Notes: generated by a model not told the origin, from the sequence alone. A DNA stretch of 64,000 nucleotides from Acetivibrionales bacterium (GCA_050953835.1 JBMNNH010000018.1:3030-67029); one strand, 5' to 3'; shown: positions 48,254-64,000, counted from the stretch's first letter. A program made the numbers and translations.

Positions 48254-50059
48254 TTATTCATTTACAACTACATATGCACTTACGCTCACTTCCGGATTCT
48301 CTTCTGAACGTGCGATAATCTCATATGTACCCCTTACGCTTGCTGCCTTATATATTCCGTTTTCGTCAATGCTGCCGCCATCTTCGTCCTTGAGAATCCA
48401 TTTTACTTTTTTATTGGCAGTTCCCTGTACAAATGCTTTAAACCTTATTTCTTCTCTTGGTTTAACCGATACCACATCGGGTTCAACTCTAAGTGTTATT
48501 TCTTTTTTGTCCGGATATTCCTCCGAATCCTTTTGAGGTTTAAATGCGAACCACCTTAAGGATATTGAAGTAATGTCCTCACCGTCTAAAAACTTCAAGC
48601 CGATTTTAAAAGTACCTTTTTCAGGATAAACGATAACTGCAGCATCAACTTTGTGAAGGGGTGTTCCAATATCACTTTTTTTAAACACATCCCCGTTGCC
48701 AAACAGCATTGCACCATTCTCCTTGTGAACAATACAGACATTTACGCAGACATTTCCCAAGCCAAGTTCATGTGATATCTCTTCAGACACATACCTGCCA
48801 TTTAATTTTGCTCCTGCTCCAAGGTTTATTTCTACCGTACCCGTTGAAGTTGCATAATCATATGCCTGTGCAGCAGGTATTCCTACATTGAAATCAAAGC
48901 TGTTAGTCTCTGCATTGTATTTTACATCGGCTTCCGGCTTTTCCCAAGCATTCAGGCGTTTTGTAACTATATTCGTATCAAAGCGGATATCACCTCCAGA
49001 CATCAGATTAGCCAACCCGCCCGAATTGCCTAACTGACTTGATGGAAGGTACTGTTTAAAGGGCACCTGAATAATATTCCGTATAATGTACGTTGTATTT
49101 GTGGACATCAAATCTATCCTGGCCAGGCATATCCCCAATTCTTCACCCGTACATGAAGCCTCCAGCGTCCTGGAATAATAATCCCTTTTTATTATTTTCC
49201 CAGGGTCATCTTCTGATATTTCGATCAATGCCTTTAGGGACAGCTCCTTGTTTTCATGTTCTGCTCCTATATATACATCAAAATTCACACTACTGCTGAA
49301 TAGTGCAGCCTTTATTCCATTAACCTGCTCTGCCTTTATAATATACTTAGCTTCATATTCAGCTTTCTGCTCATCAGGGTTTTCTGTAAAACTAAATACA
49401 AGTTCACTGCTTCCCTCTTTTGTCCTGAAATACTCGGAAACTGAAGAAAACTCAAACTTTACCGGTTCCATATCCTGGTGCTTTAAAACAATAAATGATA
49501 TTCTTGCTTCCTGTCCCGACCTCACCGCTACTGGAGTTTTTAATAGAATGGTTAAACCTTTCCTGTCATAAAGGAGTCTATAAGTAAAACATGGGTCGGC
49601 GTTAAGTATATCTTCCAGAGATGGTTCTTCAGATTTTAGGTATAAATTATATGTCTCTTCAATCCTGTTAAACTGACTGCCGCCTTCTTCATTATCGCCG
49701 GTAACAGTATTAACAGGCTCCTTCAGGTTTTCTTCATACTCTATATAGAGGTAGCAGTGGTTGCTCCCCTCAAGAGAATCAAAGCCATCAATCGTAGACA
49801 GTTTTCGCGTAATTGGAGCCGGTAGAACTATTTCCCTTCCAAGGTAATCAACTGCCATGCCCGACTCTACTGAAACTGTATTGTCGTCCGTTGCTACTAC
49901 TCCCATACCGCATACTATTCCCGCACCATGCAACAGTCTGTTCACGAATCTTCTCTTGTCGTTAAAGTACTTTTGTTCTGTTTCAAAGTCCCTTACAGTC
50001 AGAAGTTTTCCATAGAAAAACCTGTTTCTTTCAAAAGGATAATAACTTCTATTTTTCAT
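48254..50059 (-). CDS. CIS distal protein, candidate tail fibre/receptor-binding protein with C-terminal Big_2-like Ig domain
   Basis: Last gene of the core operon. The N-terminus is YYPFERNRFFYGKLLTVRDFETEQKYFNDKRRFVNRLLHGAGIVCGMGV. The C-terminus is VSVKPREEIRFKAFVQGTANKKVKWILKDEDGGSIDENGIYKAASVRGTYEIIA (Big_2-like). Confidence 0.45.
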   Translation of the reverse strand: MKNRSYYPFERNRFFYGKLLTVRDFETEQKYFNDKRRFVNRLLHGAGIVCGMGVVATDDNTVSVESGMAVDYLGREIVLPAPITRKLSTIDGFDSLEGSNHCYLYIEYEENLKEPVNTVTGDNEEGGSQFNRIEETYNLYLKSEEPSLEDILNADPCFTYRLLYDRKGLTILLKTPVAVRSGQEARISFIVLKHQDMEPVKFEFSSVSEYFRTKEGSSELVFSFTENPDEQKAEYEAKYIIKAEQVNGIKAALFSSSVNFDVYIGAEHENKELSLKALIEISEDDPGKIIKRDYYSRTLEASCTGEELGICLARIDLMSTNTTYIIRNIIQVPFKQYLPSSQLGNSGGLANLMSGGDIRFDTNIVTKRLNAWEKPEADVKYNAETNSFDFNVGIPAAQAYDYATSTGTVEINLGAGAKLNGRYVSEEISHELGLGNVCVNVCIVHKENGAMLFGNGDVFKKSDIGTPLHKVDAAVIVYPEKGTFKIGLKFLDGEDITSISLRWFAFKPQKDSEEYPDKKEITLRVEPDVVSVKPREEIRFKAFVQGTANKKVKWILKDEDGGSIDENGIYKAASVRGTYEIIARSEENPEVSVSAYVVVNE

Positions 50060-50067
50060 AGCCCCCC

Positions 50068-51246
50068 TTAACCCTCCTTGTTTGTATAATCATATATTAT
50101 TGTATCAAATGGTATGCTTTTGTTTTTCTCAAGTTTTAGAGCCGTTTGTTCTCCTATGCAGGAGTTTATCCCTAAATAGGCATGCATGTCAAGATATATG
50201 TATGGCTTAAGAGGTATGATTACCGCTTCCGTTTGAGCAGGTATGTTTTCCGACACTAGTCTCAGAAGTGCTTCATGCCTCTTCTTATCTGATATGCATT
50301 CCTCATTTATCAATACAAAGAAACGATATGGGTTCTCCCCAAACATTTTCTTGTAAGGATTATCAGGCATACTGGACTCTATCATTGGCCTAACCTGTGA
50401 ATACTCGATAATGATCGGCTTCTCACCTGTATATAAATAAATCAGCCTTTCAATGCCTTTTTTTGTTCCTGCTGATGCATATATATCCACTGCTTCAGCA
50501 AGTAAAACCCTTAGTTGCTTTTCATCCCAGGATGAAACATCATAGATATCCAACCAGCTGCAAAGCCATTCAATGAAATCGCTCCGGGCTGTTTGCAGGT
50601 CAAAATGCCTTGATATGTTATATATTTCATTTTCCATATCAAAAATAAATGACTGGAAAATGGACAAAAACCTGTAGAAAAAATCGTCCTTGGCAATATT
50701 CTGTCTGTATATTTCAGGAAGGTAGTCAATAATATCTTCCCCCGGCAGGTATATACGTATCCTCTTTAAAGCCGGTTTCAAATAGTATGTCCCTATTAAT
50801 TCAATTTTAAGCCACAGGTAACGGCCTTTTGATTTTATCAATGCATCTGGAGCGTTGATAACTGTCTCTTTAAACAGGTAATCCAGATACTCCTGTTTCT
50901 CCTTAAAAGAAAGAGAAGCCGATTTTATTACATTATCAATCTTTTCTTCATCTTGCCCTATTAATATAGTGCTGCTGTCCGAAGCATAGAAAGATACTTT
51001 TATAAAAGTATCCCTTAATATTTCTGCGTCCATAGTAATTCTGCGCCATTGCATTCCGTTTTCCCTTCCATCCAATGCACAGCAGTACAAAACACCCCTT
51101 GTTATTGACTCTTCATCTGCTTTTTCAGGCACACGTATTTTAAGGCATTCGTTATCAGCTGTAAGGTTATACAAATACCCGTTCTCCCAGTCATCACTTT
51201 TATTCATTGAGAAGTATTTAACTGTACCTTCAATCATAAATTGCAC
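50068..51246 (-). CDS. Baseplate protein, P2 gpI-like phage-tail-protein domain
   Basis: IDYLPEIYRQNIAKDDFFYRFLSIFQSFIFDMENEIYNISRHFDLQTARSDFIEWLCSWLDI matches the conserved LP-x-x-Y...FL...LD...A...FL-x-WL motif of gpI-type baseplate proteins. Confidence 0.7.
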   Translation of the reverse strand: MQFMIEGTVKYFSMNKSDDWENGYLYNLTADNECLKIRVPEKADEESITRGVLYCCALDGRENGMQWRRITMDAEILRDTFIKVSFYASDSSTILIGQDEEKIDNVIKSASLSFKEKQEYLDYLFKETVINAPDALIKSKGRYLWLKIELIGTYYLKPALKRIRIYLPGEDIIDYLPEIYRQNIAKDDFFYRFLSIFQSFIFDMENEIYNISRHFDLQTARSDFIEWLCSWLDIYDVSSWDEKQLRVLLAEAVDIYASAGTKKGIERLIYLYTGEKPIIIEYSQVRPMIESSMPDNPYKKMFGENPYRFFVLINEECISDKKRHEALLRLVSENIPAQTEAVIIPLKPYIYLDMHAYLGINSCIGEQTALKLEKNKSIPFDTIIYDYTNKEG

Positions 51247-51267
51247 CTCTATTCAAATATGTTGTGT

Positions 51268-63504: not shown

Positions 63505-63545
63505 ACGTATCCTCCCGCTCTTCTAGTACATAAATATGCCAAATA

Positions 63546-63593
63546 TTACTCCATCAGTCATAAAGGACTAATGTAAGTCGGCTGATGGAGTAA
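63546..63593 (-). other. Perfect 12-bp stem hairpin in the 104-nt gap after the first tube gene
   Basis: TTACTCCATCAG (63546-63557) and CTGATGGAGTAA (63582-63593) are perfectly complementary. On the minus-strand RNA they are followed by UAUUUGGCAUAUUUAUGU. Confidence 0.5.
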
Positions 63594-63608
63594 TAAAGCA
63601 TTCATGCC

Positions 63609-64000
63609 TTATTCTGTAGGTTCTTCTCCCGCAACAGGAGCACCCTGGTCAATTCTGTCCAGTCCTTCATGCGCAATTTCAAGACTTTCGACCGCAACTT
63701 CAGAACCAAGTGCATTAAAATCAGGAGCAGTATACCTTACAGGCCATGCATTGATTAGTTCCCATTGAGGGCCGTCATTTCCGTCATCTGTTATAAGTGT
63801 TATGGTTATGGTTTTTCTAGTGATACCGGTAGGATTCTGGGTATTTGTACCGGCTACTGTTGCCATCCAGTCAAACATTTCACGGTCACTAACTATTCCC
63901 CATTTCAATGTTACGTTCCCGTATTTTGATAATCCAGGAAGCTTTCTTGGCGTATTCCTTAGGTCATCACCTTCCCTGTATTCAATAACATCCACTGATG
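63609..64000 (-). CDS. Tail tube protein (T4 gp19-like, Afp1-like), N-terminus beyond window end
   Basis: VIEYREGDDLRNTPRKLPGLSKYGNVTLKWGIVSDREMFDW...WPVRYTAPDFNALGSEVAVESLEIAHEGL is the conserved tube pattern. The reading frame stays open to position 64000. Confidence 0.85.
   Translation of the reverse strand, partial: SVDVIEYREGDDLRNTPRKLPGLSKYGNVTLKWGIVSDREMFDWMATVAGTNTQNPTGITRKTITITLITDDGNDGPQWELINAWPVRYTAPDFNALGSEVAVESLEIAHEGLDRIDQGAPVAGEEPTE

Follow-up and report, generated by a model that had tools for sequence, protein, structure and literature searches.

The locus studied here raises the question of whether a compact run of phage-tail genes in an uncultured spore-forming Acetivibrionales bacterium (Clostridia) belongs to a phage or to a dedicated CIS, and where such a machine would act. 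The window, the whole stretch of DNA that was analysed, is 64,000 nucleotides long, and the genes in question form one tight operon on the minus strand at positions 48254-64000, in which every part listed below is present. We conclude that this is very probably the core structural operon of a chromosomal phage-tail-like CIS of the Bacillota branch of eCIS lineage II, IIa type, an assignment based on best matches and gene content rather than on a reference Afp11 tree.

A complete tail operon with a CIS sheath

The gene inventory proposed by a sequence-only reading of this DNA was recovered in full, on that strand and in that place:

63609..64000 (-) main tube protein tube1 (Cis1/Afp1-like); PF06841 E 1e-32
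63133..63504 (-) upstream chaperone ORF (G-like part), 123 aa; PHROG 508 'tail assembly chaperone' E 1.7e-6
63148..63154 (-) slippery heptamer T TTT TTA in the frame of the 123-aa ORF, predicted -1 frameshift site
62951..63133 (-) downstream chaperone ORF (T-like part), 60 aa; DUF6760 E 2e-18
62499..62933 (-) tube2, tube-initiator tube paralog (Afp5/Pvc5/Cis1b-like); PF06841 E 1e-29
59493..62483 (-) 996-aa protein at the tape-measure position, variable body and conserved C-terminal motif
58818..59459 (-) tube initiator (Cis7/Afp7-like), 213 aa, CIS_tube plus LysM-like C-terminus; PF19266 E 7e-32
57687..58796 (-) baseplate hub, gp27/gpD-like N-terminal half of a split VgrG (Cis8a), 369 aa; YQBQ E 3e-7
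56944..57690 (-) spike, gp5/gpV-like OB fold and beta-helix half of the split VgrG (Cis8b), 248 aa; Phage_base_V E 9e-27, DUF2345 E 7e-8
56479..56907 (-) gp25/gpW-like sheath initiator (Cis9), 142 aa; GPW_gp25 E 3e-23
53426..56443 (-) wedge protein Cis11 paralog 1 (J1); Baseplate_J E 8e-5
51268..53421 (-) wedge protein Cis11 paralog 2, 717 aa; Baseplate_J E 8e-13
50068..51246 (-) wedge adaptor, Cis12/gpI-like, 392 aa; Tail_P2_I E 8e-6
48254..50059 (-) distal baseplate protein, eBAP3 'tail fibre' class, 601 aa, by homology and model
48215..48236 (.) bidirectional GC-rich terminator hairpin ending the core operon

All core ORFs are intact, with lengths matching those of their homologs, and TM prediction returned no TM helix in any core protein. 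Intergenic gaps range from -4 to 36 nt with one exception of 104 nt, so that the small gaps described earlier stand, whereas the 'several ATGA overlaps' reduce to a single one within 48254-64000, between hub and spike (57687-57690), the rest lying further down the locus. The strong terminator noted after the distal gene is real, a hairpin with a 9-bp stem and seven G-C pairs that is shared with the convergent gene.

Tube1 is cut by the window end, which leaves its N-terminal 33 codons outside; in identical contigs the full-length protein has 161 aa (E 4e-43 in L002), and its best PDB matches, the main tube proteins Alg1, All3324, Pvc1 and Afp1, mark it by sequence as an Afp1 orthologue. Tube2 shares 32% identity with tube1 and is closest to Pvc5 (5e-22) and Afp5 (2e-19), so that what had been taken for an extra tube paralog is, by these matches, the Afp5/Pvc5 orthologue and thus the universal tube-initiator layer. 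The C-terminal 60 aa of the 213-aa tube initiator (residues 153-212) gave a LysM-type PHROG match (E 8e-8); Pfam made no LysM call in this protein, whose LysM-likeness is apparent by eye and by PHROG. The hub matches Phage_GPD in identical contigs, and its residues 83-366 align with residues 68-350 of fused Cis8 proteins of 580-597 aa. Both J-related proteins find Streptomyces Cis11 (9gtp_1K): paralog 1, of 1005 aa from an ATG with a ribosome-binding site or 1017 aa from an upstream GTG, has it as best PDB match at 3e-30, and paralog 2, which is paralogous to J1 and has at least 531 homologs, mainly in Bacillota, reaches 4e-31. The best PDB match of the 392-aa adaptor is 9gtp_E (2e-5), a 190-aa chain of the Streptomyces baseplate taken here to be Cis12.

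The sheath had been predicted to lie upstream, beyond 64000. Five metagenome contigs nearly identical to the window (L001-L005; 99.9-100% identity) bear this out, placing a 595-aa Phage_sheath_1 gene 37 bp upstream of tube1 and, beyond it, housekeeping genes. Head genes were found neither within 48 kb on one side nor within 7 kb on the other, and the same flanks held no capsid, portal, terminase, integrase or lysis gene. By annotation, the operon encodes every contractile-tail part except the head-side genes. The sheath is most similar to that of a haloarchaeal clade IIa CIS (438 bits, E 5e-130), followed by Streptomyces CIS (360-369 bits), then PVC, Afp, tCIS and AlgoCIS (120-198 bits), with a pyocin at 61 bits and phage sheaths at 35 bits or less.

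These data bear directly on a rival reading of the operon, as tail module of a Mu/PBSX-like prophage, as a defective prophage or as an R-type tailocin, for which one may cite the Mu-like gene order, the frameshift in the tail-assembly chaperone, PHROG matches to tail proteins and one source that labels a homolog 'homolog of phage Mu protein gp47'. Because the sheath resembles those of CIS much more than those of pyocins or phages, we favour a CIS over a myophage tail, as the sequence-only reading had done; the CIS-only Pvc16_N cap, AAA+ ATPase and DUF4280 protein are present, capsid, portal, terminase, integrase and lysis genes are absent from the 48-kb and 7-kb flanks, and the same chromosomal module has been kept across dozens of genera. 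We therefore regard a phage or tailocin origin of this kind as highly improbable.

Gene order and relation to characterised systems

The P2 map places V-W-J-I-H-G ahead of FI-FII-E-T-U-D, and the map of Mu gp39-gp49 is the basis for comparison with Mu. The order here had been described as P2-like, but the sheath-tube-chaperone-tape-measure block leads and the hub and V-W-J-I follow, a swap relative to P2; with the D-like hub directly ahead of V-W-J-I, the block order is that of Mu/PBSX, and it is standard for the clade. With Mu/PBSX the locus shares the succession of sheath, tube, frameshifted chaperone, tape measure, LysM-type protein, gpD-like hub, spike, gp25-like, J-like and I-like proteins and fibre, a likeness backed by weak Gp41_Mu and PHROG 508 matches, yet it lacks head, packaging and lysis genes and goes beyond Mu/PBSX in its Afp5-like ring, second J paralog, Pvc16_N cap, AAA+ ATPase and DUF4280 tip. 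Proteins like V, W, J, I, D and FI/FII are likewise shared with P2 and R-type pyocins; relative to P2 the blocks are swapped, and the pyocin sheath matches at just 61 bits. Among subtype Ia eCIS, Afp/PVC (PDB 6RAO, 6J0B) supply equivalents of Afp1, Afp5, Afp7-Afp11, Afp15 and Afp16, but they hold three sheath genes between two tube genes, where here the sheath gene is upstream of tube1; they have a fused VgrG in place of the split hub and spike, one Afp11 plus a gp7-like Afp12 in place of two Cis11 paralogs, an adenovirus-like fibre with the tape measure gene after it, and no counterpart of the chaperone pair.

Closer still are two systems that have been characterised in archaea and actinobacteria. 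The CIS of Halogeometricum borinquense ('archaeal T6SS', clade IIa; PDB 9EZM), which provides the best sheath match, also has two cis11 genes and structural genes in two sub-clusters around an interspacing region, and the nearest relatives of haloarchaeal clade IIa Cis11 are Bacillota Cis11 proteins (PMC11566945). It differs in that no tape-measure ORF was reported for its cluster (PMC11566945), where a long ORF occupies that position here, in that its interspacing genes are toxin-immunity pairs as opposed to conserved membrane and secreted proteins, and in the host, here a Gram-positive spore-former. The Streptomyces coelicolor CIS-Sc (type IId; PDB 8BKY/9GTP; PMC12237407), second-best by sheath, has Cis11 and Cis12 homologs, a wedge of two Cis11 positions and one Cis12, as predicted here, and a gene for a single-pass membrane protein directly after the baseplate genes, as here; unlike the present locus it carries a single cis11 gene and lacks a fibre, and a tape measure gene was not reported (PMC12237407).

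The organisation had also been called hybrid. This does not hold, given that the identical gene order recurs in nearly all of about 80 related loci, in Bacillota and other phyla, and that the special traits are published hallmarks of lineage II: two afp11 copies and an afp8 split into gp27-like and gp5-like ORFs characterise subtypes IIa/IIc (PMC6899500), and this operon carries both.

Chaperone frameshift and tape-measure position

The 60-aa DUF6760 ORF lies in the -1 frame relative to the 123-aa ORF, whose stop codon it overlaps by 1 nt, and the slippery heptamer is predicted to fuse the two. The 123-aa ORF, which has a weak Gp41_Mu match, is kept at the same position in 33 loci, all of which preserve the -1 relation (33/33); a canonical in-frame heptamer is present in 26 of the 33, and a homopolymer run in the remaining seven. 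The P2 E/E+E' site, T TTT TTG, resembles the T TTT TTA found here.

The 996-aa protein returned no Pfam or PHROG match and no detectable similarity to any tape measure, and its gene (26-32% GC) contains an internal duplication of 201-207 nt. A motif of about 26 aa, ...VDKVYxxxExRLRxExxRRGI-COOH, ends all 35 proteins at the tape-measure position, and this motif and the position together suggest a putative tape-measure role. Counterparts in related loci range from 200 to 1532 aa, a spread that fits a simple ruler poorly.

Distal protein and downstream genes

The 601-aa protein follows the Tail_P2_I gene, as members of the eBAP3 tail-fibre class do (PMC12923769, 2026), and shows full-length homology to the 'C3b/BIG' eBAP3 fibre of Flavonifractor An92 (L032), the published example NFGZ01000037_8. 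Its AF2 model (pLDDT 76) has an all-beta Ig/macroglobulin-like body, in keeping with the MG/Ig folds of the class, and a C-terminal Big_2-fold domain; Foldseek returned C3c MG domains and a Big_2 domain (7r3t, rmsd 1.3 A). The Big_2 domain claimed earlier fails as a Pfam call (E 0.011, below threshold) and survives in the AF2 model and in the match of the family profile to Big_2 of BglH in the PDB (E 1e-4). The profile also gave a weak match between the N-terminus and the tCIS crown (E 0.12). Conservation across Bacillota extends over the first ~510 of the 601 residues, and the Big_2-fold domain is the only part absent from Paenibacillus homologs.

Beyond the terminator lie the accessory genes and, with them, the cap, PAAR-like and ATPase genes that had been reported elsewhere in the locus and are indeed there:

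47060..48211 (+) accessory protein: pseudokinase, one TM helix, extracellular LysM (E 6e-7)
44126..46894 (-) accessory 4-TM protein: HAMP (E 8e-9), degenerate cyclase-like domain (Guanylate_cyc E 0.007), TPR
42545..44080 (-) accessory single-TM MORN-repeat protein; MORN E 8e-19
40497..42545 (-) accessory secreted coiled-coil protein with two C-terminal repeats, 682 aa; signal-peptide-like N-terminus
39127..40475 (+) IS element with DDE transposase (DDE_Tnp_IS240 E 4e-25) and inverted repeats
36228..39101 (-) accessory secreted coiled-coil protein, 957 aa, Cu_amine_oxidN1 domain
35639..36226 (-) tube/sheath terminator cap (Cis16/Afp16); Pvc16_N E 3e-33
34860..35642 (-) conserved 260-aa protein between the cap and PAAR genes
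34413..34799 (-) PAAR-like spike tip (Cis10); DUF4280 E 4e-37
25711..27906 (+) AAA+ ATPase (Cis15/Afp15-type, CDC48-like) with N-terminal winged helix; AAA E 2e-34, WHD E 1e-22

The pseudokinase part is cytoplasmic, with the TM helix at residues 247-265; a profile of 13 homologs matched only protein kinases in the PDB (4e-6), no catalytic residue is conserved among them, and in Clostridia loci these homologs directly adjoin the fibre gene on its 3' side. Of 46 Bacillota loci, 25 have a full-length ortholog of the HAMP protein beside CIS genes, and MORN homologs, with variable C-terminal extensions (512-1069 aa), occur in 33 of the 46, mostly next to the PAAR or cap gene; 13 loci have neither within the flanking sequence at hand. 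Homologs of the 682-aa protein were found in Paenibacillus, Tumebacillus and Marinisporobacter loci, and those of the 260-aa protein keep its position in six loci. The ATPase matches p97/CDC48 and has orthologs inside five CIS loci (L015, L044, L053, L059, L061).

The IS element has entered the spacer that separates the 682-aa gene from the 957-aa gene and is flanked by a 9-bp target duplication (ATGGTATTG); a same-species contig (L088) lacks it and has the two genes 38 nt apart. An insertion upstream of the cap and PAAR genes may lower their expression in this strain. A stronger version, in which a system intact in the species is impaired in the strain by polarity on the 957-aa, cap, 260-aa and PAAR genes, draws on the duplication, the uninterrupted spacer of L088 and the tight packing 3' of the IS (36226/36228 and the overlap at 35639-35642). 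We consider it unlikely: every ORF is still intact, an internal or IS-borne outward promoter could serve the downstream block, and contigs from other samples also contain the IS or end at it, which indicates that the insertion persists in the population.

Assembly and site of action

By analogy with homologous systems at every step, the gp27-like hub and gp5-like spike would form a central trimer, with the DUF4280 PAAR-like protein at its tip. The 996-aa protein would dock in the hub by its conserved C-terminal helix, with the remainder extending as a ruler or lumen occupant, and the LysM-like Cis7 ring and Afp5-like tube2 ring would adapt 3-fold to 6-fold symmetry. Tube1 would polymerise on these rings, aided by the chaperone of 123 aa and by the -1 fusion that joins it to the DUF6760 ORF, a G/GT-type arrangement. 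Six wedges, each of two Cis11 paralogs and a gpI/Cis12 adaptor, would ring the hub and bear the Ig-tipped 601-aa protein; the sheath, whose gene is just outside the window, would be nucleated by gp25, growth would be halted by the Pvc16_N cap, and the CDC48-like ATPase might aid assembly or cargo loading. Baseplate rearrangement would then trigger sheath contraction, driving out tube, spike and cargo.

On sequence, such a machine may act either as a released particle or from the envelope of its producer; an extracellular role is putative, given that the nearest solved relatives are the membrane-bound haloarchaeal CIS (PMC11566945) and the cytoplasmic Streptomyces CIS. It is quite possible, if short of probable, that particles accumulate in the cytoplasm, are released by lysis of the cell or mother cell, bind a target through the 601-aa protein and inject cargo. 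The distal protein belongs to a 'tail fibre' class catalogued for eCIS, the binding part of a Paenibacillus member of which redirected PVC particles to THP-1 cells when grafted onto them (PMC12923769); its Big_2-fold C-terminus is the sole part not found in Paenibacillus homologs, and the core proteins are free of TM helices. Set against this, a search of ORFs of at least 100 aa in the window and in the 7 kb upstream turned up neither holin nor endolysin, the nearest characterised relatives are not extracellular, conservation of ~510 of 601 residues across Bacillota is above that usual for a receptor-binding fibre, and the baseplate genes are flanked by genes for conserved membrane proteins.

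Those genes are central to a second account, plausible though not one that we would call probable, in which the baseplate docks on the pseudokinase-TM/HAMP-pseudo-cyclase/MORN module and fires outward (T6SS-like, as in Halogeometricum) or at its own membrane (as in Streptomyces with CisA). Streptomyces CIS depends on CisA, a single-pass membrane protein whose gene comes straight after those for the baseplate (PMC12237407), and the haloarchaeal CIS has a 6-TM anchor, Hbor_38620 (PMC11566945). The sheath is nearest to these two systems, in the order haloarchaeal then Streptomyces, and the pseudokinase-TM-LysM protein holds the position of CisA; the two are analogous in architecture, CisA having a disordered N-terminus and a substrate-binding-like C-terminal domain where the protein here has a pseudokinase N-terminus and LysM C-terminus. 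Synteny of the HAMP and MORN proteins extends to 25-33 of the 46 Bacillota loci, and eBAP3 and Tail_P2_I proteins are said to resemble TssK and TssG (PMC12923769), although Foldseek did not return TssK among the matches of the 601-aa model. Docking to the module is itself putative, outward firing through a thick Gram-positive wall is without precedent, MORN C-terminal variability suits a polymorphic effector as well as an anchor, and MORN and HAMP homologs are both missing from 13 of 46 loci within the flanking sequence at hand.

Conclusions

The machine type encoded here is already catalogued in many Gram-positive bacteria and its layout is normal for that type; in the literature searched, we found no particle description for Bacillota members of the clade. 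What this analysis adds is a -1 frameshift signal linking the two chaperone ORFs, a C-terminal motif conserved among the proteins at the tape-measure position, a conserved downstream membrane-protein module of pseudokinase, HAMP and MORN proteins, and a strain-specific IS that divides the accessory operon.

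Core operon and its surroundings

ORF listing and Pfam scans bore out the CIS core operon proposed on the minus strand at 48254-64000, where the gene row is unbroken from the window end to 48254.

Genes of the core operon, in order from the window end

Window end, minus strand: tube1, PF06841, cut by the window end
Minus strand: chaperone-like pair, a 123-aa ORF and a 60-aa ORF (DUF6760)
Minus strand: tube2, PF06841
Minus strand: 996-aa ORF at the tape-measure position, no family match
Minus strand: 213-aa protein (Cis7), CIS_tube, final 60 residues LysM-like
Minus strand: hub, gpD/YqbQ-like
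Minus strand: spike, Phage_base_V and DUF2345
Minus strand: gp25, after the spike and before J1
Minus strand: J1 (1005/1017 aa) and J2 (717 aa), both Baseplate_J
Minus strand: gpI-like protein, Tail_P2_I
Minus strand, ending at 48254: 601-aa distal protein, last gene of the core row

All core ORFs are intact with lengths that agree with those of their homologs, most starts are preceded by a good ribosome-binding site, and intergenic gaps range from -4 to 36 nt with a single exception of 104 nt. Of the several ATGA overlaps described in the sequence-only reading, the one between hub and spike is present and no other occurs within 48254-64000, while the strong terminator is there as described: a stem of 9 bp with 7 G-C pairs at 48215-48236 closes the core row and doubles as the terminator of the convergent gene.

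Five metagenome contigs, 99.9-100% identical to the window, reach past 64000. In these contigs full-length tube1 has 161 aa, and the sheath gene, correctly expected upstream, lies 37 bp upstream of tube1 and encodes 595 aa with Phage_sheath_1 and 1C domains. The sheath gene is preceded by a 360-bp AT-rich spacer that holds the terminator hairpin of the preceding gene and sigma-70-like promoter matches; sporulation control was sought here, and the search returned just these consensus matches, which are not evidence of function. Farther upstream are genes for a YhcN/YlaJ spore lipoprotein, a DksA-type zinc-finger protein, a nucleoside phosphorylase, a DHQ-synthase-like enzyme and IleRS, and the remaining 48 kb of the window carry sporulation and housekeeping genes along with CIS accessories. 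No capsid, portal, terminase or integrase gene was seen in the window or in the upstream part of the near-identical contigs, no lysis genes were found among ORFs of at least 100 aa in the window and upstream contig sequence, and capsid, portal or terminase genes contiguous with the operon, named beforehand as the finding that would tell against the proposed particle, are absent from the extended contigs. We rejected a prophage reading on the absence of capsid, portal, terminase, integrase and lysis genes from the sequence covered. Species-representative genomes contained no close relative of the host, the best being Marinisporobacter at 45% identity.

The full order is sheath, tube, chaperones, tube2, 996-aa protein, LysM-like protein, D-like hub, V, W, J, J, I and distal protein. 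In the tail map of P2, the V-W-J-I-H-G block stands before FI-FII-E-E'-T-U-D, whereas Mu gp39-gp49 and PBSX have the gene order seen in the core operon. The order had been called P2-like; with the sheath-tube block first and the V-W-J-J-I baseplate block after it, it differs from that of P2 and is the same as that of Mu gp39-gp49 and PBSX.

Relationship to characterised contractile injection systems

The locus combines a Pvc16_N/Afp16 cap, an AAA+ ATPase and a gp19-family tube with an absence of head genes, as CIS do. The cap (Pvc16_N), the DUF4280 PAAR protein (E = 4e-37) and the ATPase (CDC48-like AAA+) anticipated elsewhere in the locus were all found, and orthologs of the ATPase sit within the CIS loci of five other genomes. 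The best solved match of the sheath is the Halogeometricum CIS of clade IIa (438 bits), followed by Streptomyces CIS (360-369 bits), PVC, Afp, tCIS and AlgoCIS (120-198 bits), R2 pyocin (61 bits) and phage sheaths (at most 35 bits). An R-type tailocin of the pyocin R2 or diffocin kind was also rejected, because the sheath is far from that of pyocin (61 bits against 438 for the best CIS), cap and ATPase are present, and ORFs of at least 100 aa include no lysis genes.

The remaining core proteins were likewise compared with solved systems. J1 and J2 are paralogous to one another and each match Streptomyces Cis11 at ~1e-30, and the gpI-like protein matches a 190-aa chain in the same Streptomyces baseplate entry, which we take to be Cis12. 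The hub aligns to residues 68-350 of fused VgrG-like Cis8 proteins of 580-597 aa, with the gp5-like half of the split Cis8 supplied by the ORF that follows. Tube1 is closest to the main tube proteins Alg1, All3324, Pvc1 and Afp1. The best matches of tube2 are Pvc5 and Afp5, so what had been taken for an extra tube paralog is the universal initiator ring and not an additional gene.

A profile of J2 retrieved 80 genomic loci, onto which we mapped the window proteins. In nearly all of them the order is sheath, tube1, 123-aa ORF, 60-aa ORF, tube2, long ORF, Cis7, hub, spike, gp25, J1, J2, gpI-like protein and distal protein; because this order recurs so widely, the organisation is not unusual, and the hybrid organisation previously suggested is rejected. 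Hosts include Paenibacillus, Brevibacillus, Tumebacillus, Cohnella, Desulfocucumis, Anaerotruncus, Flavonifractor, Oscillospiraceae and Lachnospiraceae, as well as Acidobacteriota, Chloroflexota, Nostoc, Nitrospirae, Bacteroidetes and one haloarchaeon, whose Natronomonas locus was among those retrieved by the J2 profile. One contig (L044), whose label is that of a Muribaculaceae (Bacteroidota) MAG, has a locus typical of Clostridia, including MORN, cap, HAMP and ATPase genes; mis-binning or horizontal transfer could account for it.

Chen et al. (2019; PMC6899500) assigned two afp11 copies to subtypes IIa and IIc, a split afp8 to IIa-IIc, a PAAR gene to every lineage II subtype but IIb and divergent afp12/13 to IIa/IIb, and reported no recognisable afp14 in lineage II. 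Our locus has two afp11 copies (J1 and J2), afp8 as gp27-like and gp5-like ORFs, a PAAR-like afp10 (the DUF4280 gene), divergent afp12/afp13 in the form of the Tail_P2_I adaptor and an eBAP3-class distal protein, and no recognisable afp14, the 996-aa ORF being without Pfam or PHROG match. The Halogeometricum cluster likewise belongs to clade IIa and has two cis11 genes, as well as two structural sub-clusters with an interspacing region between them, and the nearest relatives of haloarchaeal Cis11 are Bacillota Cis11 (PMC11566945). Given the published subtype traits and the likeness to the Halogeometricum CIS, assignment of the locus to eCIS subtype IIa, made from gene traits and best matches, is well supported, though it falls short of proof. 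The operon, from an uncultured Acetivibrionales bacterium, is unremarkable within a CIS clade that has already been catalogued, and it offers a clean example of the Bacillota branch, for any member of which we found no literature report of an imaged particle or a mode of action.

A predicted frameshift in the chaperone pair

The 123-aa protein matches PHROG 508 'tail assembly chaperone' (E = 1.7e-6) and, weakly, Gp41_Mu. The first base of the 60-aa DUF6760 ORF is the final base of the upstream stop codon, and the ORF lies in the -1 frame; this frame stays open for 31 nt upstream of the ORF, and T TTT TTA stands in the zero frame at 63148-63154 (signal region 63133-63154). Both genes occur together in 33 loci, and in every one the second ORF overlaps the first and is read in the -1 frame. 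The overlap contains a canonical in-frame X XXY YYZ heptamer in 26 of these loci, while the other seven have runs of G GGG GA or T TTT TC in the corresponding position. The form of the heptamer follows lineage: Bacilli have T TTT TTA/G, many Clostridia A AAT TTT and Acidobacteriota G GGG GGG. In-frame heptamers are ~5-10 times commoner in the overlap than out-of-frame ones. With overlapping ORFs after a tube gene, a -1 frame, a slippery heptamer and chaperone-family homology, the pair is a G/GT (P2 E/E+E') arrangement with a predicted -1 frameshift fusion, departing from that type in that tube2 stands between the pair and the 996-aa gene. Literature searches for DUF6760 and for a chaperone frameshift in CIS found nothing relevant. 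The pair, with its predicted programmed -1 frameshift, is conserved across lineage II CIS of several phyla.

The protein at the tape-measure position

The 996-aa protein has no match in Pfam or PHROGs, loose thresholds included, and phmmer returned one weak relative and no more. Its gene is AT-rich (26-32% GC versus ~38% around it; 60000-62400), and at 60030-60445 a stretch of 201-207 nt (67-69 aa) is duplicated in tandem. The same position in related loci is occupied by ORFs of 200-1532 aa whose bodies cannot be aligned. All 35 of 35 have in common a C-terminal motif, ~D-I-N-R-L-x-D-K-V-Y-x-x-L-E-R-K-I-R-x-E-R-x-R-R-G-L-COOH, represented in the window by ~26 residues at 59496-59573 (...VDKVYxxxExRLRxExxRRGI-COOH), and a weaker F-A-x-x-I-x-x-K-Y motif lies near the N-terminus. 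These two motifs mark the proteins as a single orthologous family in which the ends are conserved and the middle varies freely, as would be expected of a tape measure that docks in the hub and touches the cap. Position, C-terminal motif and internal duplication fit a tape measure, with no similarity to known tape measures. Streptomyces Tme is a tape-measure-like effector at the same position, and on this precedent and the tenfold length range the 996-aa protein may have an effector role. The C-terminal motif could provide a search handle for a gene that published surveys reported as absent from lineage II.

The distal protein

The distal-protein family is conserved over its full length (590-614 aa, 34-76% identity) in hundreds of Clostridia, and over the first ~510 residues in Paenibacillus. 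The AF2 model is all-beta (pLDDT 76), and Foldseek pairs it with macroglobulin domains of complement C3c and its 83 C-terminal residues with a Big_2 domain. The family profile finds the BglH Big_2 domain (E = 1e-4), with a further, weak match to the N-terminus of the tCIS crown protein. Its homolog in Flavonifractor An92 (L032) is the example of the 'eBAP3: C3b/BIG' fibre class in a 2026 catalogue, in which eBAP3 fibres are proposed to attach via the Tail_P2_I adaptor and a resemblance of eBAP3 and Tail_P2_I proteins to TssK and TssG is noted (PMC12923769).

Accessory genes between the core operon and the ATPase

The set of genes that separates the core operon from cap/PAAR is not random. In many loci, full-length orthologs of the membrane proteins encoded there directly follow the distal-protein gene or stand beside cap/PAAR.

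Accessory features downstream of the core operon

47060-48211, plus strand: pseudokinase, 245-aa cytoplasmic domain, one TM helix, LysM domain
Within 42545-46894: HAMP protein, 922 aa, 4 TM helices, HAMP, degenerate cyclase-like domain, TPR
Within 42545-46894: MORN protein, 511 aa, one TM helix, MORN repeats
40497-42545: 682-aa secreted coiled-coil protein, weak TolC/OEP-like signal, two C-terminal repeats
39127-40475: insertion sequence (IS), 1349 bp, DDE_Tnp_IS240-type transposase, ~26-nt inverted repeats, 9-bp target duplication ATGGTATTG
36228-39101: 957-aa secreted coiled-coil protein, Cu_amine_oxidN1 wall-associated domain

A word-index homolog search with the LysM-containing protein at 47060-48211 returned only LysM-domain matches and an identical MAG protein, and its N-terminal family was therefore assembled from ORFs in the compared loci. 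In PDB, the resulting cytoplasmic-domain profile (13 homologs) matches protein kinases and nothing else (CDPK1, 4e-6; S. aureus PknB, 3e-4), and since no catalytic residues are conserved in the family we regard the protein as a pseudokinase, with a layout like that of PASTA kinases. In 14 Clostridia loci a homolog comes after the fibre gene; most of these homologs have no LysM domain, and in some a basic amphipathic tail takes the place of the TM helix.

The HAMP and MORN proteins are syntenic with CIS genes across Bacilli and Clostridia. Among the 46 Bacillota loci whose downstream sequence reaches 6 kb or more, 33 carry the MORN protein and 25 the HAMP protein (non-Bacillota loci, whose downstream sequence was too short, were left out). 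MORN homologs keep the N-terminal ~345 residues and vary at the C-terminus, for a total of 512-1069 aa, which would suit a polymorphic effector no less than an anchor. A literature search for MORN or HAMP proteins with CIS found nothing relevant. Alanine racemase genes also follow the HAMP gene in two compared loci (L017 and L026), an adjacency that may not be chance; in the window, alanine racemase is encoded between PAAR and ATPase (27866-34405), together with a 4-TM protein, ABC_sub_bind, a 786-aa MFS-containing protein and GNAT.

Both secreted proteins recur in Paenibacillus and Tumebacillus loci. The Marinisporobacter locus shares the 682-aa protein alone, for which a look-up by exact sequence found nothing. 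The IS occupies the 38-nt spacer between the genes of the two secreted proteins. It is missing from the same-species contig L088, and other contigs break in it or hold part of it, which indicates that it is polymorphic in the population. In strains free of the IS, the HAMP, MORN, 682-aa, 957-aa, cap, 260-aa and PAAR genes form a single tight row, and the IS may be polar on the cap and PAAR genes. In another same-species contig (L089, 4694-6323), the cap gene is followed by a truncated 189-aa ORF and then an inverted DUF4280 gene, either a strain rearrangement or a misassembly.

At 19794-25714, a 1288-aa protein without family match is preceded by a YbjN/CesT-like chaperone-type protein (23682-24581), and the two adjoin a 341-aa ORF and the AAA+ ATPase; they may be a cargo/chaperone pair. 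Two validated 'eCIS-associated toxins' are from Firmicutes loci, EAT8 (Paenibacillus jilunlii) and EAT12 (Ccel_1518, Ruminiclostridium cellulolyticum), both annotated 'Nucleoporin?' (PMC8213781). These toxins may correspond to one of the conserved accessory proteins.

Deployment and significance

For assembly and firing we infer a pathway from homologous systems of solved structure, above all CIS-Sc, in which each wedge has two Cis11 and one Cis12 (PMC12237407); in our system the two Cis11 positions per wedge would probably be filled by the J1 and J2 paralogs. That the product is a free eCIS particle targeted by fibres has somewhat less than an even chance in our view: the distal protein is of a fibre class with a variable Ig tip and TM helices are absent from all core proteins, but lysis genes were not detected, and among characterised systems the closest relatives are cell-bound. 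The same relatives, being membrane-bound or cytoplasmic, speak for deployment coupled to the envelope, as do the lack of lysis genes, the strong conservation of the distal protein and the synteny of the membrane module, which has a single-pass membrane protein where Streptomyces has CisA. We weight free release and envelope coupling about equally, each a serious possibility just short of even.

Taking envelope coupling further, we propose, as a tentative and on balance rather unlikely model, that the Bacillota CIS branch is envelope-coupled, with its baseplate docked to a dedicated membrane/signalling module and fired by an envelope signal. The TssK/TssG-like 601-aa and gpI-like proteins would dock the baseplate onto a conserved module of membrane-tethered pseudokinase, 4-TM HAMP/pseudo-cyclase/TPR sensor and single-TM MORN protein, to which some lineages would add two secreted coiled-coil wall proteins, and an envelope signal would trigger assembly or firing. 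Conserved membrane proteins beside the baseplate genes are candidates for such anchoring or triggering. The interest of this locus lies in its conserved, predicted frameshift chaperone, the terminal motif at the tape-measure position and the membrane module, all three testable and of possible use to the field, and not in gene order, and the Bacillota branch bears on the question of a contractile machine working in a thick-walled Gram-positive cell. If the proposed coupling is true, the system would not be a free eCIS; it would correspond, in Gram-positive cells, to the T6SS membrane complex or to Streptomyces CisA.
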